This document shows positions 11,470-16,298 of a stretch of 32,000 nt of DNA, piece by piece. The translations under genes were made by a program, and so were the position numbers. Source of the stretch: Dickeya dadantii NCPPB 898 (GTDB lineage: Bacteria > Pseudomonadota > Gammaproteobacteria > Enterobacterales > Enterobacteriaceae); assembly GCF_000406145.1 (NCBI RefSeq), contig NZ_CM001976.1:4332380-4364379 (forward strand), read 5' to 3'. The notes beneath the pieces were generated by a model that was not told the DNA's origin, searched no databases, and saw nothing but the letters and a program-made list of their open reading frames with translations. How positions within the stretch are numbered: the stretch's first letter is position 1; each line of letters opens with the position of its first letter.

Positions 11470-12612
11470 TTATTGAAAAGGCGTCTGATGTTCGACCAGT
11501 TCCCACACCAGATAGCAAAGAAACGCGCAGCCAACCACGACTAGCACCATCGTCATGCCTTCCGGCCCCATACGGTCCATCATGAAGCCGATGCCAATCA
11601 GACCGGCGATGCCGCCAAGGGAATCCATCATGGTGTAGCTCATGTTGGCCGACATCTGCTGCTGCGGATGAAAGCGATCGCCTATCAGCGACAGGCCGAT
11701 GCTGTAAACGCCGCCCATACTGCCGCCCCAGACATACAGCAGCACCAGCGTGGTACCGTAATCGGCATACACCGCCAGCGCCAGAAACACCGCGCAAACC
11801 ACCGAGCAGAAAATACAGAACACCACGATCCACTGCCGGTTCACCCAGTCCGACAGCAGGCTGACCAGCATCCCGAGCGTGACGCTACCCAGCATGAACA
11901 TGGTCATCAACAACGATGCCCGCTCCTCCGTCAGCCCGTCGCTGATGCCATACAGCGTCAGGAAGTTGGGCAAACCGTAGAAACTGACGCCGCCGACCAG
12001 CGCGGACACCAGAATGGCGCGGGCATGGCGGCAGACAAAGCGAAAGCGCACCGCGGACACCGTTCCCGACAGGGGGTTGATATGGGCAATCCACACCAGC
12101 AGCAGCGCGCTCAGGCTGAGCAGTGCAGTCAGCCAGAACCGCTGCGGCATGGAAACCTGGGTCAGTTGCAGCAATACCGGTCCCAGCGCCACTCCCAGCG
12201 ACAGCGCGGCGGAAAACAACCCCATGATGACGCCGCGTCGGCGCAACGGCAGTTGATTCAGCCAGGTCTGCAACAGAATCAGCTGCATCCCGGTACACAG
12301 GCCGTATCCCAGAATGCTGACCAGCCAGCCGGGGTAGAATTGCTGCCACGCCATACTGGCGCACAGGCTGGCGCGCAACAGCACCAGCAGCAGCGTTGAC
12401 CACATCAGTCCCATCCGCTGGATAATGCGGCTCAACCGCTGGTGGAACAGCAGCACGCCAATGATTTCACAGGCCATCGCCACGCCGATCCACAGATTGT
12501 TATGGCCCTGCAGGTTCATCAGCACCGGAATGGTGACGTAATTGATGCCGGAAACCAGTTGGATCAGGAAGGTCTGCATGATTAGCAGTATCGGCAATAA
12601 ACGCGGCATCAT
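11470..12612 (-). CDS. MFS transporter (12-TM type), last gene of the ELIC operon
   Basis: 380 aa, hydrophobic throughout, with an MFS-like loop motif (LPLRRRGVIMGLFSAALSLGVALGP). Its start ATGATG overlaps the stop of the upstream gene by 4 nt (12609-12612). Confidence 0.8.
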   Translation of the reverse strand: MMPRLLPILLIMQTFLIQLVSGINYVTIPVLMNLQGHNNLWIGVAMACEIIGVLLFHQRLSRIIQRMGLMWSTLLLVLLRASLCASMAWQQFYPGWLVSILGYGLCTGMQLILLQTWLNQLPLRRRGVIMGLFSAALSLGVALGPVLLQLTQVSMPQRFWLTALLSLSALLLVWIAHINPLSGTVSAVRFRFVCRHARAILVSALVGGVSFYGLPNFLTLYGISDGLTEERASLLMTMFMLGSVTLGMLVSLLSDWVNRQWIVVFCIFCSVVCAVFLALAVYADYGTTLVLLYVWGGSMGGVYSIGLSLIGDRFHPQQQMSANMSYTMMDSLGGIAGLIGIGFMMDRMGPEGMTMVLVVVGCAFLCYLVWELVEHQTPFQ

Positions 12613-13898
12613 AGCGCCTCCGGATATTTAGGCACCTGCCAGCTCAGTAACAGCTGGCCGTGCGTCGCCTGACGGATCGTCACCTGTGCGGATTCCGCCT
12701 CCGTCTGCCAGCGCAGAAAACGCTGCCACCAGTCCGGATCTTCGGCCACTGCACCGTCCGGCTCGCCACATCGCGTCAATCGAACATCCAGCACCCAGTG
12801 CAGCAACGCCTCTTCCCTTTGGCTCACCTCGATCGTCAGCGGCTGCTGCGCCAGTTGCCGCCACAGTTGAAAACTCTGTAGCCAGAAATGCTGGCAACAG
12901 TCCGGTGAGAAATGCGCCTCCAGCGTTTTGTCCGTCGTAATCGCCAGCACCGAATTCGGACAGGGAAGCAGCGACGGCGCCGCGTTTCGCCACCATTCGT
13001 CCAGGTTTGCCTGCTGTGCCTGGACGCTTCCCGACGGCAAAGGATCGGCAGCCGTTGCCGTGGGATACGCCGGCGGCCGTTGATGATCGCCGCCGCGCAG
13101 GAATAGCAACGGCAACGGCCAGTCATACAATCGTTCCAGTTGCGAAGGCGATGCGGCATGCAGTAGCGCGTGGTAAGCCTGTTCACGGCTTGCCAACTGC
13201 ACGCGTACCTGCTGGCTGCTGCGCCGCATCCACCATACCGCCAGCCCGACAACCAGCCCGAGAAACAGAATGGTGCTGATCGCTTTGCGAAATACCTGAT
13301 TGAGCGCCTCCAGCCGCTGATAAAAGCTCGATAGCTCCAGATCCATCGCCAATACACCGCGAAACGCGCCTTGCCGATCATAAAAAGGCGCGTAGGCGCT
13401 GATGAAAGAGCCCCATTCATCCCGATACGGCTGCGCCGACACCGCGGTTTTGTGCTCCCGCAGTGCCTCAACCAGCTCCGACGGCGCATTGTCATACACC
13501 TGCATCAACGCCGGCGGCAAGTCCGGCTGGCCGTCGCCATCGTTGTCATTTTGCGGGCTGGGGTTCACTACAAACCGCACCTGGTCCTGATCCAGCACGG
13601 TGGTATAGATGTAGCGCACATCCTGCGAGGCCTGTCGAATGCGTTCCAGTTGCACCGCCAGTTGCTGATACACCGGGTCATCGCGCTCGGTGCGCGCGCT
13701 AATGTCCTGATGTAACTCGCCAGACAGCGTGGAGGCCGCCGCCCGCACGTTCGACAGCAACCCGATTTTGATCTCCTGCTCCAGCGTACTGATCGACTTG
13801 TGGTAGACCATGTAGGTGGAGAACCCCAGCAGCCCGATAAAAATCAGGCTGGCGAACAGCGCTTCCGCCAGCGCCGTACGTGAAGGTGAAGCGCTCAT
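12609..13898 (-). CDS. membrane protein with periplasmic Cache-like (PDC-fold) sensor domain and uncharacterised Trp-rich cytoplasmic domain
   Basis: True start is ATG 13898, overlapping the ELIC stop (ATGA). The 429-aa product has TM1 at about aa 10-32, a periplasmic ~170 aa with a Cache-like signature (RYIYTT..., [31 protein letters not shown]), TM2 at about aa 207-224, and ~200 cytoplasmic aa with no motif I recognise. The track extension to 14249 overlaps ELIC out of frame. Confidence 0.75.
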
Positions 13899-14926
13899 AG
13901 TGTAATCCCCCGTATAACCAGCACGCCGCCAATCGCCAGGAACCCCAGAGGAAAGGCCAGACGACAACGCTGTATCAACAGATCGTCCTCCACGCCGTTT
14001 GCCTGGCGATGGTGGGCGAAAATAATCAGTAGGATCGCCGCGAAAATACTGCCATACCCGGCGATGATCATCTGGTCGATGACCGTGGTGTAAGGTAGCC
14101 GCGGCAGAATATTGCTGGTGTAAAACGCATAGGCCACCACCGTCAGCATCAGGGTGAACGAGGTCTGCAAACGCTCGGAGAAAGACTCCAGCCAGAACAC
14201 GCTCCATGACGCGGCAATGATCAGCCCCAGCGGCAGAATAAAACTCCACAGGTAGTAAGACGGGTTGCGAACGGCGTCGATCCGTACCGTAATGCGGGAG
14301 AACTCATTCTGATTGGGCTGCACGCTGCTCAAATGGTCGTAACGGATATCGCTGATGTGGGTCGAGGCTTTGCCCCGGATCCACCATTCGTCGATCTCTT
14401 CGTTATCAATATTCTCGGTGTAGACCTGTATATCGCTGAACCGCAGTTGCTGGTTGTTATAGGAAAAAGGCTCCAGTTCCAGCACGAATTGTTGACGATC
14501 GAATGGAAACAGCCGGAAGTCCATGTCATTGCTGAACGAGCCCAGAAAACGGGCGTTATAAATAACCCGCCCGTCGGGAAACAGCATCAGGCGCTTATTG
14601 CCGGTGTCCGGGCTGCCGACCACGTTGATGAATTCCAGCGCCGGCACCCATAATCCGTTATTGATCCACCGCTCGATCTGGGTGTTTTCGACAATCAATG
14701 GCTTATCGCCCGGCGTTTTGCGCGGTTTGCCGGTCCACTGCGCCACGATGTAGCCATCGACCTTGTAGGTCTGCTCCAGCGTGTTCACGCCGTAGATCTT
14801 ATTGATAAAAATGCTCACACTCACATCCACCGGGCGGGCATCCGCCGCGTTATCCGCCGGCGCGGACCACGCCGGCAATCCCAGCAGCAACAAAACAAGT
14901 CCGCAGCATGACCACAGAATCCGCAT
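13895..14926 (-). CDS. ELIC: pentameric ligand-gated ion channel ELIC (Erwinia ligand-gated ion channel)
   Basis: 343 aa with signal peptide [21 protein letters not shown]. The mature sequence [43 protein letters not shown]...[59 protein letters not shown]... matches the crystallised E. chrysanthemi ELIC sequence as I recall it (beta-sandwich plus 4 TM). Confidence 0.95.
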
Positions 14927-14927
14927 C

Positions 14928-16298
14928 TCACACCTCCCCGACCGACGGAAAAGCGCCGGGTTGACCCAACGCCCACAACAGGTTATCCACCAGCGCCCGA
15001 TGGCAATGCGGTAGCACTACCAGATGGCAGAAAAGCACAGACTTTCCCTGCACCATCAGCTGTTCGCTGGACAACGAGAAACGTTCGATAATGGACGGAC
15101 TGGGCGCGCTGAACTGCACCATCAGCGAGCCGCTGATTAGCGGCTGCAGCAACAATCGCTCGCGGCCAGGATCAAGCCGTTCAAACAGATATCGAAATTG
15201 CTGGTGAGCGTAACGCTGTATCTCGTGACAGCGGCGAATCATCTCCCGCTGCCCCGGTTCGCCGAGGCGACACAGCTGATTCCACAGCACCACCGCAGAC
15301 AGGCCGGGCCGCGACCCGGACAAGGTCGCATCTCCGCTGCCGATATAGTTCGGGCGGCTGAGCGCCACCGCGCGATACGGCTCCGACAGCATCACGACGC
15401 CGCACGGCCACGGCATGCTCAGCCATTTGTACGGACTGGTGCAGATGGAGTGCAGCGACGCCGCCTGCGCATCAATCGCCAGCCGACGCCCTTCCGGTTC
15501 CGGCCAGAACGGCAAGTAACTGGACGACAGCGCGCCATCCACATGCACCCAGTAACTGCGCTGCTGCGGCGTATTCGGCGGCAGCAGTTGCCGGAGCCGC
15601 GCCGTAATCAGCGACCAGTCGTCACAGGAACCGCTGAAGGTGGTGCCGCTGGTCAGACAGACGATCACCGGCCGTCGGTAGCGATGAAAAAACATCACCA
15701 GTTGCAGCAGGCTCTCCACATCGATTCGCCCGGCGTCGTCGCACGGCACCGCCCGCGGCCACACACCGGCGTTAATGGGGCAGCGCCCCAGCTGTGGGCC
15801 GGCTTCGGCGGGCGTCGCCAGTTGCAACACCCGGCAGGCTTTAGCCAGCGAATAGTGGCTGCGCTCGGAATACAGCACCACCGGCGCGTAGCGCGCCCGC
15901 GTCATGGCCGGCCAGTGCGTGGTGCTCGCCCCGCACAGAAAATCGCGCGCATTCCACAGCGCGAACAGGTTGCCTTCGGTCGACCCCATCGCGGTCAGGT
16001 ACCCCCAGTACGGCGACGGCAGGTTCCACAGCCGGGCGTAATAATCCAGCACCGCCCGTTCAAAACGCTTGCTGTTAACCTGGTAGGCACCGGGCTCCAT
16101 GCTGTCCCCCAGATTCAGCAGATTCATGTCCAGCAACGGGCGCAATACGGTGTCGAACTCACCCTGTTGGTTGGTCTGAAACCCGGCGAAATGTCGCCGC
16201 TGCTCCTCCATGCGCGCGGTGTAGGCCCGCAAAATTCGCCTTCGCACCACATCGTGTACGCCTTCAGCCAAAATCGTTAATTCATCAATCGGTTGCAT
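14928..16298 (-). CDS. group II PLP-dependent amino-acid decarboxylase (histidine/aromatic decarboxylase-like), first gene of the ELIC operon
   Basis: 456 aa with a GGAGAG SD. Motifs are [36 protein letters not shown], and the PLP-Lys context [16 protein letters not shown] (Lys291, nt 15426-15428). The stop lies 1 nt from the ELIC ATG. Confidence 0.8.

Follow-up and report, generated by a model that had tools for sequence, protein, structure and literature searches.

Which molecule does the pentameric ligand-gated cation channel ELIC respond to in its own bacterium, and do the genes packed around it have a part in supplying that molecule? Zimmermann & Dutzler 2011 (PLoS Biol, PMC3119659) placed ELIC next to a presumed amino-acid decarboxylase at this same locus, and Fig. 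6A of their paper draws 'ORFs residing on the same operon'; a preliminary description of the locus was right to assume such a mention. The passages of that paper drawn on here do not take up what genes three and four might do. The DNA analysed is a 32,000-nucleotide stretch of the Dickeya dadantii NCPPB 898 genome (contig NZ_CM001976.1), hereafter the window, in which ELIC is a member of a tightly packed four-gene unit comprising an enzyme, a channel, a membrane sensor and a transporter.

Layout and transcription of the four-gene unit

The four genes lie on the minus strand at 16298-11470, with gaps of +1, -4 and -4 nt, and direct reading of the sequence upholds the tight packing described earlier. 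A single G separates the decarboxylase stop TGA (14930-14928) from the ELIC ATG at 14926, and ATGA overlaps join ELIC to the third gene (13898-13895) and the third gene to the MFS gene (12612-12609). The start of the third gene is placed at ATG 13898 and not at GTG 14249 because the N-termini of its homologs align to the former; the 546-aa ORF that opens at GTG 14249 is an upstream extension of the same frame only. A single Shine-Dalgarno (SD) sequence had been described at the operon head, which is wrong, as a GGAG-type SD is read directly ahead of each gene on the minus strand: at 16307-16302 for the decarboxylase, at 14939-14933 (GGGGAGG, inside the decarboxylase 3' end) for ELIC, at 13911-13906 (GGGGGA, inside the ELIC 3' end) for the third gene, and at 12621-12617 (GGAGG, inside the third gene's 3' end) for the MFS gene. 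This geometry at the internal junctions is consistent with translational coupling.

The promoter expected at the operon head was located neither by a sigma-70 scan of the minus strand over 10500-17000, which returned no site, nor in the published D. dadantii map of Forquet et al., which holds no primary TSS for the four genes. The upstream intergenic region (16299..16756, minus strand), which holds the decarboxylase SD and is shared with the divergent pelB, gave no match in an Rfam search. Two GC-rich hairpins (11370..11469, minus strand; RNA fold -45.8 kcal/mol, z=-3.3) lie directly 3' of the MFS stop and mark the 3' end of the unit. Published RNA-seq places an internal TTS at genome position 4428511 (window 11415), right after the MFS gene, and, for the gene that comes next, a strong TSS at genome position 4428412 (window 11316). 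No independent promoter or terminator was found within the four genes, where the same map shows neither TSS nor TTS (Forquet et al.). Hairpins are not confined to the region after the MFS gene, as had been stated, since a strongly structured stretch directly follows the ELIC stop (13885-13830, z=-4.95); it is not a clean terminator, because its U-run lies within the loop of the minimum-energy fold and other Dickeya have breaks in the T-run. In the Nanopore validation by Forquet et al. every junction is scored 'low signal', the operon being essentially silent in all published conditions, and co-transcription of the four genes is unproven because published expression is too low.

The encoded proteins

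The first gene (16298..14928, minus strand; Dda3937_00519) encodes a 456-aa group II PLP-dependent decarboxylase (PF00282, 52.9 bits against a 27-bit cutoff). Its nearest solved relative is the L-methionine decarboxylase of Streptomyces sp. 590 (7cif; E=4.9e-67, full length, 38% identity). The enzyme was taken for a glutamate decarboxylase (GAD) in PMC3119659, following its annotation; by contrast, it falls far below the NCBIfam model for GAD (24.2 against a cutoff of 380.4) and also fails the NCBIfam equivalog for histidine decarboxylase (HDC; 193.6 against 305). On sequence grounds it belongs to a cassette-specific, methionine-decarboxylase-like clade, here called type A (P0168-P0193), with a substrate predicted by homology. 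The named members of this clade come exclusively from genera where the cassette was found, and Q41, D254, K291 (within SPYKW) and Y318 are invariant among the cassette orthologs. Equivalents of Gln64 and Tyr421 occur in both type A and the Streptomyces enzyme, as does a 'CP...W' insertion missing from HDC; however, the type A clade is separate from 7cif, is about 100 residues shorter, and carries SPYKW at the PLP lysine where 7cif has SGHKW. As the canonical motif at this site reads SxHK and not SPYKW, an unusual chemistry is conceivable for type A. The Dickeya enzyme is probably cytoplasmic, no signal peptide being seen by inspection.

ELIC (343 aa, 14926..13895, minus strand; Dda3937_00520) begins with a signal peptide, its ligand-binding domain (Neur_chan_LBD, 61.6 bits) is periplasmic, and its residues 22-343 match the PDB ELIC chains (E=1.5e-218). 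The channel is opened by short primary amines, which are products of amino-acid decarboxylation, with EC50 values of 0.37-2.4 mM (PMC3119659). The potency of GABA is low (2.4 mM; PMC3119659), an observation that counts against the amine-cassette reading proposed below.

The third gene (13898..12609, minus strand; Dda3937_00555) encodes a 429-aa membrane protein comprising TM1 (residues ~10-34), a periplasmic PDC/sCache-like domain (35-204) with a DxDxDG-type acidic loop at 118-123, TM2 (205-226), a helical linker (227-268) and a degenerate domain resembling the histidine kinase catalytic domain (291-429). Its AF2 model (mean pLDDT 84.4) retrieves sensor histidine kinases in Foldseek with E down to 4e-10, catalytic domains of such kinases (3a0z, TMt 0.57) and the sCache sensor 8py0 (TMt 0.59). 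In Pfam the Dickeya protein matches MCP-like_PDC_1 below threshold only (18.2 against 27); among 30 family members a PDC match occurs in 16 and dCache_1 in five, while HisKA and HATPase_c occur in none. Over residues 226-429 the family alignment lacks any column in which a His, Asn, Asp or Gly is conserved. Nothing in the cassette is less conserved than the cytoplasmic half, whose column conservation is 0.26-0.30, while the periplasmic domain reaches 0.69. Thus, the earlier label of Cache-domain membrane protein was incomplete, and the product is, on its predicted model, a membrane protein that combines a PDC sensor with a degenerate tail resembling a histidine kinase.

The last gene (12612..11470, minus strand; Dda3937_00554) encodes a 380-aa MFS transporter (MFS_1, 88.3 bits against a cutoff of 33.4). 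A search for close characterised or solved relatives, including NCBIfam, found none, the NCBIfam matches being weak. In every cassette the final gene is an ortholog, with 41-54% identity, and the protein is proposed as a candidate amine exporter or precursor/product exchanger.

Recurrence of the cassette and exchange of its enzyme

Overlapping stop and start codons are commonplace in bacterial operons and unremarkable on their own; that one gene set turns up again and again in genomes without a close relationship is beyond chance. The set was found in Dickeya, Vibrio, Celerinatantimonas, Cohaesibacter (Alphaproteobacteria), Flavobacteriaceae and metagenomes (L023, L025, L027, L028). Species-representative genomes yielded 12 ELIC-clade loci, and all of them carry it. 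Decarboxylase, pLGIC, PDC protein and MFS follow one another in this order in Vibrio, Cohaesibacter, Flavivirga and Celerinatantimonas amid unrelated flanks, and one locus (L020) retains all four genes in permuted order. Every examined ELIC-clade channel with at least 38% identity has the four-gene set, while the linkage is absent from the examined pLGICs outside this clade. The co-occurrence with bacterial pLGICs raised in the preliminary description therefore extends over the whole ELIC clade, in three bacterial classes or phyla, and no further; within the clade this recurrence supports the four genes as one functional unit.

The enzyme slot is filled by three non-orthologous decarboxylases: a true GAD in the Cohaesibacter and Flavobacteriaceae cassettes (395-414 bits against 380.4), a true HDC in L020 (441 bits against 305), and the methionine-decarboxylase-like type A enzyme in the remaining cassettes, including that of Dickeya. 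Thus, the constant element is 'an amine-forming decarboxylase' and not one particular enzyme. The channel, sensor and MFS protein remain orthologous and co-diverge (Mantel r=0.83-0.90, p<=0.0005), and they cluster by enzyme type, not by host taxonomy. Two further loci (L030, L031) carry HDC, PDC protein and MFS followed by a SpoIIE phosphatase, without a pLGIC; the core trio can thus dispense with the channel, a point against the amine-signalling reading given below.

The agonist pocket was compared at the residues required for activation according to PMC3119659 and at neighbouring positions (Y38, V40, E77, I79, N103, R105, E131, F133, Y175, H177, L178 and F188). It is essentially invariant in all 15 cassette channels, across the three enzyme types, the exceptions being L178I in L015 and F188Y in L008 and L009; pocket residues diverge in ELIC-clade channels without the full cassette.

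A candidate amine-signalling module and its alternatives

We consider it rather probable that the four genes are a single cassette, mobile by horizontal transfer, for making, exporting and sensing a small primary amine; its mobile recurrence and the swapping of enzyme types suggest that the enzyme product is the natural ligand of ELIC. The cytoplasmic PLP decarboxylase would convert an amino acid into its amine, which may be GABA or histamine in other hosts; in Dickeya the candidates include 3-methylthiopropylamine, because the enzyme is methionine-decarboxylase-like, and other short aliphatic amines. With a cytoplasmic enzyme and a periplasmic ligand site an exporter would be needed, and the MFS protein would carry the amine into the periplasm, perhaps while taking up its precursor in return. 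Sub-millimolar to millimolar periplasmic amine would bind the periplasmic domain of ELIC and open its cation conductance, so that membrane potential and ion flux would be linked with the making and export of the amine. The PDC-sensor protein would respond to this periplasmic signal or to one that accompanies it, be it the amine, the precursor or Ca2+; its output would run through a kinase-like cytoplasmic domain that is catalytically dead, probably by contact between proteins and not phosphotransfer. What we infer is that product and agonist are identical, in which direction transport runs, what the PDC protein binds and acts on, and what physiological purpose the cassette has. The invariant pocket is awkward here, as agonists as unlike as GABA, histamine and an aliphatic amine, made by GAD, HDC and methionine-decarboxylase-like cassettes, would require a promiscuous, head-group-only receptor.

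One common external ligand would suit that pocket. ELIC and the PDC protein might sense amines that come from a host or the surroundings, GABA of plants or algae for example. The enzyme product would then not be the agonist, and the decarboxylase and MFS protein would serve uptake, catabolism or some other, unrelated amine pathway. The names of several cassette hosts suggest that they live with plants or marine plants (Dickeya; Vibrio rhizosphaerae, V. mangrovi and V. spartinae; Marinomonas spartinae). The silence of the operon in published culture conditions and the chemoreceptor role proposed for bacterial pLGICs by Tasneem et al. (PMC549065) point the same way. However, this reading, which we regard as unlikely though the strongest of the rivals, leaves unexplained why a decarboxylase is always kept and is swapped for a non-orthologous one instead of being lost; decarboxylases form amines and do not break them down, and an amine importer to the cytoplasm has no obvious tie to a periplasm-facing receptor.

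The physiological unit could also be larger, since TU 1846 of Forquet et al. (Dda3937_00519, 00520, 00555, 00554, 00553, 00552) adds a GH19 glycosidase and a PatG-like protease, the latter recurring with MKLPxQ peptides near ELIC-clade channels in L005 and L019. This is improbable: the definition of TU 1846 involved neither a primary TSS nor a primary TTS, each of its junctions shows 'low signal', an internal TTS directly follows the MFS gene and a strong TSS precedes GH19, GH19 is found in no non-Dickeya cassette and PatG in just one, and GC content falls to 0.37-0.44 in these flanks. Slightly less credible still is a third gene encoding a working sensor histidine kinase that would control operon expression by way of an orphan response regulator and stand outside the effector machinery; the predicted overall fold and the database name 'histidine kinase' of some homologs speak for it, but the family lacks a common phospho-acceptor His and N, G1 or G2 box residues in 226-429, HisKA and HATPase_c are missing from all 30 members, the cytoplasmic half is poorly conserved, and no response-regulator gene lies inside the cassette in the genome loci examined. 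Finally, the genes might act independently and be co-located by shared travel on an island. Each host has flanks of its own, and genes for an integrase or resolvase lie near the Cohaesibacter cassette, which shows that the cassette is mobile; but such hitch-hiking, to which we give very little credence, does not predict a gene content that outlasts permutation in L020, the substitution of non-orthologous enzymes with one common reaction class for one of its members, and divergence to 36-44% identity with tight co-divergence.

The amine cassette favoured here has familiar parts. Cytoplasmic decarboxylases are encoded beside precursor/product transporters in GadB-GadC, HdcA-HdcP and OxlT (an MFS exchanger) with oxalyl-CoA decarboxylase, and in decarboxylase/antiporter modules millimolar product accumulates outside the cell. 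Classical amino-acid decarboxylase/antiporter systems are two-gene units with APC-family exchangers, whereas the ELIC cassette has four genes, an MFS protein that may work by exchange, and a ligand-gated channel and PDC sensor that the classical modules lack. The preliminary description knew of no treatment of the Cache and MFS partners as one system; pLGIC-Cache fusions and operons of pLGICs with stand-alone Cache or PBP genes were noted in general terms by Tasneem, Iyer, Jakobsson & Aravind 2005 (PMC549065), who proposed cooperation between both sensors. The likeness lies in a periplasmic Cache/PDC-type sensor genetically coupled to a bacterial pLGIC; that study described fusions and one Rhodopseudomonas operon, with chemotaxis inferred, and not the decarboxylase, MFS protein, kinase-like tail or ELIC-clade cassette. 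The recurrence of the cassette, the enzyme-slot swap, the invariant pocket and the PDC/kinase-like third protein appear to be new here; PMC3119659 reports neither conservation across species nor any swapping of the enzyme.

The classes of the animal GABAergic/histaminergic toolkit are all present, namely a synthesis enzyme (GAD or HDC), a transmitter transporter and a Cys-loop receptor, and GAD-type cassettes share enzyme family and receptor superfamily with the GABAergic one. Some animal vesicular transmitter transporters are MFS proteins, but with weak NCBIfam matches only, homology of the cassette MFS to them is not established. Unlike the animal toolkit, the cassette is one operon of one cell, vesicles are absent, and the ligand would act from the periplasm. 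If the proposed reading is true, the enzyme product would be the long-sought natural ligand of the model channel ELIC.

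The four-gene cassette and its distribution

In D. dadantii NCPPB 898, ELIC is encoded in a cassette of four consecutive, tightly packed minus-strand genes, as the preliminary description had held. Read directly from the sequence, these are a PLP decarboxylase (Dda3937_00519, 456 aa, 16298..14928), ELIC (Dda3937_00520, 343 aa, 14926..13895, also matched in the PDB), a membrane protein referred to here as the PDC protein (Dda3937_00555, 429 aa, 13898..12609) and an MFS transporter (Dda3937_00554, 380 aa, 12612..11470). The decarboxylase and ELIC genes are separated by 1 nt (TGA-G-ATG), and ATGA overlaps join ELIC to the PDC protein (13898-13895) and the PDC protein to the MFS transporter (12612-12609). 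The ORF list gives a longer 546-aa ORF in the PDC-protein frame, with a GTG start at 14249, which is taken as a mere upstream extension, since the ATG at 13898 is where the N-termini of homologs fall in the alignment. The single Shine-Dalgarno (SD) site claimed earlier is an error: a GGAG-type site is present for each of the four genes (minus strand, 16307-16302, 14939-14933, 13911-13906 and 12621-12617), those of the downstream genes lying within the gene before. Judged from the sequence, the junctions and SD sites have the appearance expected of translational coupling.

The gene order was found to be conserved in distant bacteria. A comparison starting from the PDC protein covered four distant homologs, in Vibrio rhizosphaerae, Cohaesibacter marisflavi (Alphaproteobacteria), Flavivirga aquimarina (Bacteroidota) and Celerinatantimonas, and the order decarboxylase, pLGIC, PDC protein, MFS is retained in all four loci, with unrelated flanks. 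Starting instead from the channel, the other cassette genes accompany the ELIC-clade gene at 12/12 loci, counting one genome per species. In metagenomes scanned with the PDC protein as the anchor, all relatives with at least 38% identity on long enough contigs lie in a cassette, and those with at most 33% identity almost never do, the exceptions being one locus with a pLGIC and an MFS-like gene (L046) and three others with a distant MFS gene only. Gene junctions remain close across these loci: the PDC protein and MFS genes share 4 nt in the window, Vibrio, Celerinatantimonas and Cohaesibacter, and 1 nt in L020, a locus (channel 38% identity) where all four genes are retained but their order is permuted.

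The ELIC clade has a sharp boundary (members at 34% identity and 161 bits or more, all other pLGICs at 31% and 145 bits or less), and the linkage follows this boundary only in part. Of the conserved four-gene linkage looked for in other pLGIC-bearing bacteria, the part concerning the ELIC clade stands at the 12 species-level loci, while edge members of the clade (34-36% identity) and channels outside it lack the cassette. A linkage to all bacterial pLGICs is therefore rejected, given the channels without a cassette in Rhodohalobacter (36%), in a metagenome (34%) and in Chloroflexota, and a further one at 27% identity. One distant pLGIC (L022, 27% identity to ELIC, 5642-6745, minus strand) has as its divergent neighbor a bacterial ionotropic-glutamate-receptor-like gene (7001-8140, plus strand; SBP_bac_3, Ion_trans_2 and Lig_chan), so that two ligand-gated channel families adjoin. 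A plasmid origin was also considered and rejected, as a megablast search of the four genes against PLSDB returned no match.

Parts of this arrangement are already on record. The genetic association of pLGICs with Cache domains was published in 2005 by Tasneem et al. (PMC549065), and the decarboxylase adjacency, believed in the preliminary description to have been mentioned in the ELIC literature, does appear, with an operon drawing, in the 2011 paper by Zimmermann & Dutzler (PMC3119659). The cassette builds on known kinds of gene association, namely decarboxylase-transporter modules and pLGIC-sensor operons. Literature searches on the cassette and its locus tags returned the 2011 paper alone or nothing, and found no description of a conserved four-gene cassette, of enzyme swapping, of a MetDC-like Dickeya enzyme or of the pseudo-kinase nature of the third gene; subscription journals were thinly covered by these searches, which are not proof of novelty.

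Decarboxylase types and their conserved partners

The Dickeya enzyme is a Group II PLP-dependent decarboxylase by family (PF00282, Pyridoxal_deC, 52.9 bits vs a cutoff of 27), and three identities were weighed for it. The GAD identity given in the 2011 annotation is ruled out by a score of 24.2 bits vs the NCBIfam TIGR01788 equivalog cutoff of 380.4. HDC is ruled out by 193.6 bits vs the NF002748 cutoff of 305; the enzyme reads G-F-Q at the site of the HDC G-Y/F-P and the GYP motif is absent. Its nearest solved relative is instead the Streptomyces L-methionine decarboxylase (MetDC) 7cif, which aligns over the full length at 38% identity (E=4.9e-67). In an alignment of the cassette orthologs with MetDC, the PLP lysine K291, the pyridine-N aspartate D254 (HVDGAL) and the loop tyrosine Y318 are invariant, as is Q41, where true HDCs have Pro. 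Q41 aligns with MetDC Gln64 and Y318 with MetDC Tyr421, and Okawa et al. in 2021 are said to have identified the former as the specificity residue and the latter as the acid catalyst. All cassette enzymes of the Dickeya type (type A) have S-P-Y-K-W at the PLP lysine rather than the canonical S-x-H-K, which is S-G-H-K in MetDC, true HDC and GAD. Type A (P0168-P0193) forms a clade apart from MetDC, with shorter proteins and a gap to the longer MetDC-like proteins; its named members come only from genera in which the cassette was found, and they are inconsistently annotated in databases as histidine, glutamate or generic decarboxylases. The Dickeya enzyme is thus best described as a putative decarboxylase, MetDC-like by homology.

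The decarboxylase slot is occupied by different enzymes in different cassettes. It holds the MetDC-like type A in Gammaproteobacteria, a true GAD in the Cohaesibacter and Flavobacteriaceae cassettes (395-414 bits vs 380.4) and a true HDC in L020 (441 bits vs 305), and the channel, PDC protein and MFS transporter stay orthologous across these enzyme types. The pairwise identity matrices of these three proteins are correlated (Mantel r=0.83-0.90, p<=0.0005), and identity is higher within than between enzyme types, although the GAD type covers both Alphaproteobacteria and Bacteroidota. The correlated divergence and the grouping by enzyme type indicate that the cassette was transferred as a unit and that enzyme swaps are old and rare. 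That some amine-forming decarboxylase is retained through replacement by non-orthologous genes is the strongest argument that what the enzyme makes is of consequence for its three partner genes. Two metagenome loci (L030 4822-10120 and L031 4589-10131) have a true-HDC-like decarboxylase followed by PDC protein, MFS and SpoIIE/PP2C phosphatase (518-530 aa) genes, without a pLGIC. These loci suggest that the decarboxylase, PDC protein and MFS transporter make up a core to which alternative output modules are attached, the channel being one of the possible ones. In a further metagenomic type-A cassette (L025), a Gcw_chp-family gene (4203-4928) is inserted between decarboxylase and channel; the family is interpreted here as one of putative outer-membrane beta-barrels, and the protein possibly provides outer-membrane passage for the amine.

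The channel gene encodes ELIC itself, since residues 22-343 match the PDB ELIC chains (E=1.5e-218), with a Neur_chan_LBD ligand-binding domain (PF02931, 61.6 bits) and a 4-TM pore. According to Zimmermann & Dutzler (PMC3119659), short primary amines open ELIC (EC50 of 0.365 mM for cysteamine, 0.446 mM for aminopropane and 2.4 mM for GABA), and activation requires E77, E131, F133, Y174/175, F187/188, I79 and N103. Among 15 cassette channels, whatever the enzyme type, the pocket residues Y38, V40, E77, I79, N103, R105, E131, F133, Y175, H177, L178 and F188 are essentially invariant, the only exceptions being L178I in one locus (L015) and F188Y in two (L008 and L009). ELIC-clade channels without the full cassette deviate at V40, N103, H177 and I79. 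Pocket residues tracking GAD, HDC or type A were sought in the 15 channels, and only the peripheral sites F19, R91, P132 and the loop C tip, together with T28, were found to vary, with no clean correlation at the peripheral sites. The invariant pocket is compatible with a receptor recognizing a common primary-ammonium head group, and for the same reason gives no clean read-out of the amine used by each cassette. The low affinity of ELIC would be unremarkable for a metabolite accumulating outside the producing cell. Its physiological role and natural ligand were still described as ‘not known’ in 2015 (PMC4485021).

The third gene was described earlier as a Cache-domain membrane protein. By sequence the Dickeya protein is below threshold for a PDC domain (18.2 vs 27 bits in Pfam), and a sequence search for a solved relative returned nothing useful; within its family, 16/30 members match MCP-like_PDC_1 (best E=4e-7) and 5/30 match dCache_1. 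In the AlphaFold model (mean pLDDT 84.4), TM1 and TM2 enclose a periplasmic PDC domain, and TM2 is joined by a helical linker to a C-terminal alpha/beta domain; Foldseek matches the model to the sCache sensor 8py0 (TMt 0.59) and to the sCache/dCache chemoreceptor sensors 4xmr and 6e0a. Family matches and model together assign it a predicted extracytoplasmic Cache/PDC sensor domain between two TM helices. Foldseek also retrieves entire sensor histidine kinases, with E-values as low as 4e-10, and isolated histidine-kinase catalytic domains (3a0z, TMt 0.57). An active histidine kinase is rejected despite this fold: the protein lacks a conserved phospho-acceptor His and N/G1/G2 boxes, conservation stays below 50% in every His, Asn, Asp and Gly column across residues 226-429 of the family alignment, 0/30 members match HisKA or HATPase_c, and there is no response-regulator gene within the cassettes of the Vibrio, Cohaesibacter, Flavivirga and Celerinatantimonas genome loci. 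The protein is therefore termed a PDC-sensor pseudo-kinase. No other part of the cassette is as well conserved as its periplasmic domain (column conservation 0.69), which contains an invariant loop (residues 112-132) with the sequence D118-x-D120-x-D122-G123, which fits the DxDxDG calcium-binding pattern. Divalent cations are reported to inhibit ELIC, and the pectate lyases, whose genes neighbor the cassette in the window, are calcium-dependent.

The fourth protein belongs to the MFS by its PF07690 (MFS_1) match (88.3 bits vs 33.4, residues 12-337), and no close characterized or solved relative of it was found. A decarboxylase/antiporter module for acid resistance or pmf generation was also considered, in which the linked transporter would exchange precursor for product and acid or substrate would be the inducer; in the cassette a decarboxylase gene adjoins a transporter gene, and the transporter is of the MFS rather than the APC family.

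Transcription and flanking genes

Gene lengths and spacing in the window are identical to those in D. dadantii 3937 (window position = genome position - 4,417,096; for example, pelB at 4433853 lies at 16757), so that the published transcription map of Forquet et al. 2022 (PMC9239193, Table S1A) can be read onto the window. There, transcription unit (TU) 1846 comprises Dda3937_00519, 00520, 00555, 00554, 00553 and 00552, with both primary TSS and TTS undetected. An internal TTS lies directly past the MFS stop (4428511, window 11415), followed by a strong internal TSS with a predicted promoter ahead of a GH19 gene (4428412, window 11316), and a second TTS/TSS pair flanks the GH19 gene. The TTS past the MFS stop and the TSS ahead of GH19 give the 3' boundary of the four-gene unit experimental support, and two GC-rich hairpins fold 3' of the MFS stop (-45.8 kcal/mol, z=-3.3). 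The map has no TSS or TTS inside the four cassette genes. Its nanopore validation gave ‘low signal’ at 5/5 junctions, the locus being essentially silent in the conditions used. The four genes are described as a putative single transcription unit, on the basis of their geometry and 3' terminator.

Scans for other signals were largely negative. No sigma-70-like promoter was found on the minus strand (total site counts were at chance), intrinsic terminators within the genes were at chance level (6 found vs 6.1 expected), no Rfam riboswitch or leader RNA matched 11200-16800, and the leader RNA fold is ordinary (z=-1.4). A structured RNA of two hairpins occurs at 13885-13830 (minus strand, -28.9 kcal/mol, z=-4.95), beginning about 10 nt past the ELIC stop, at the 5' end of the PDC-protein coding sequence. 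It was flagged as terminator-like, but is not a clean terminator, as the U-run lies in a hairpin loop of the minimum-energy fold and the T-run is broken in other Dickeya species. It is kept as a caveat to the single unit, and could adjust the output of the first two genes relative to that of the last two. Another terminator-like element on the minus strand (16490-16513), made up of a hairpin with a 10-bp stem and then GGTTTTGG, occurs in the intergenic region (16299-16756) between the divergent decarboxylase and pelB genes, about 190 nt upstream of the decarboxylase ATG, without an upstream gene to terminate.

Downstream of the cassette, a GH19 (chitinase or lysozyme-like) gene (10633-11259, minus strand), seen in Dickeya loci only, lies between the MFS gene and a PatG-like subtilase gene (8208-10172, minus strand; Peptidase_S8, PatG_D and PatG_C). 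In the published map (PMC9239193) it has its own strong TSS (window 11316) and TTS (window 10629). A Muramidase-family gene lies downstream of the Celerinatantimonas cassette (L005 10562-11452). The subtilase gene is followed by a 49-aa ORF (MKLPTQAQNVNR...GVNPAFWGQALNLL...; 7952-8101, minus strand), which is missing from the genes given for TU 1846. A protease with one or two MKLPxQ peptides is also found beside the ELIC-clade channels of Celerinatantimonas (L005 673-3426) and of a metagenome contig (L019 3258-6134) whose channel lacks decarboxylase, PDC protein and MFS genes; the peptides seem to form a family of RiPP or bacteriocin-like precursors that has escaped annotation. GC content is 0.37 in window 7000-8000 and 0.44 in 10000-11000, vs 0.53-0.64 in the four-gene unit and its neighbors, which may point to a separate and more recent acquisition of the PatG/peptide and GH19 segments from a foreign source. 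Just past the PatG/peptide genes lies a gene for a 401-aa regulator (Dda3937_00549, 5806-7011, minus strand, TU 1845 on its own) with a Sigma54-interaction-like AAA domain, an AAA lid and an AraC-type HTH, which is a candidate regulator. A sigma-54 activator is also encoded near the L020 cassette.

Proposed function

In the proposed mechanism, the cassette enzyme would decarboxylate an amino acid in the cytoplasm. Because the enzyme has no signal peptide and ELIC binds its ligand in the periplasm, the mechanism logically calls for an exporter. The MFS transporter is the candidate; it would export the amine or exchange precursor for product. Amine built up in the periplasm would then gate the cation conductance of ELIC, and the PDC pseudo-kinase would serve as a second periplasmic sensor, acting via protein contacts. 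This elaborates the earlier idea of the decarboxylase product as the channel ligand. Possible outputs are an electrical shunt or a feedback acting on a decarboxylation/exchange cycle, or autocrine or paracrine signaling. A bolder and rather improbable reading is that the cassette constitutes a self-contained bacterial ‘transmitter system’, with a swappable synthesis enzyme (GAD, HDC or MetDC-like), a dedicated MFS exporter and a Cys-loop-superfamily ionotropic receptor in one mobile operon, for autocrine or paracrine electrical signaling between cells, e.g. in biofilms or on plant and algal surfaces.

ELIC is among the most used structural models for neurotransmitter-gated channels, and the comparison narrows the question of its native agonist to testable pairs: the product of Dda3937_00519 with ELIC, GABA with the Cohaesibacter and Flavivirga channels, and histamine with the L020 channel. 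The inference of GABA for ELIC is traced to a mis-annotated Dickeya enzyme, now corrected, yet true GAD-linked ELIC orthologs exist. Two partner families, the PDC-sensor pseudo-kinase and the MFS transporter, are defined by the comparison, and they are the most conserved parts of the cassette. The cassette also offers a natural case in which a ligand-gated channel is tied genetically to the enzyme expected to produce its ligand, and bears on the origin of transmitter systems; if the transmitter-system reading were true, it would represent a prokaryotic forerunner, or possibly the donor, of the way in which animal GABAergic and histaminergic systems combine synthesis, transport and receptor.
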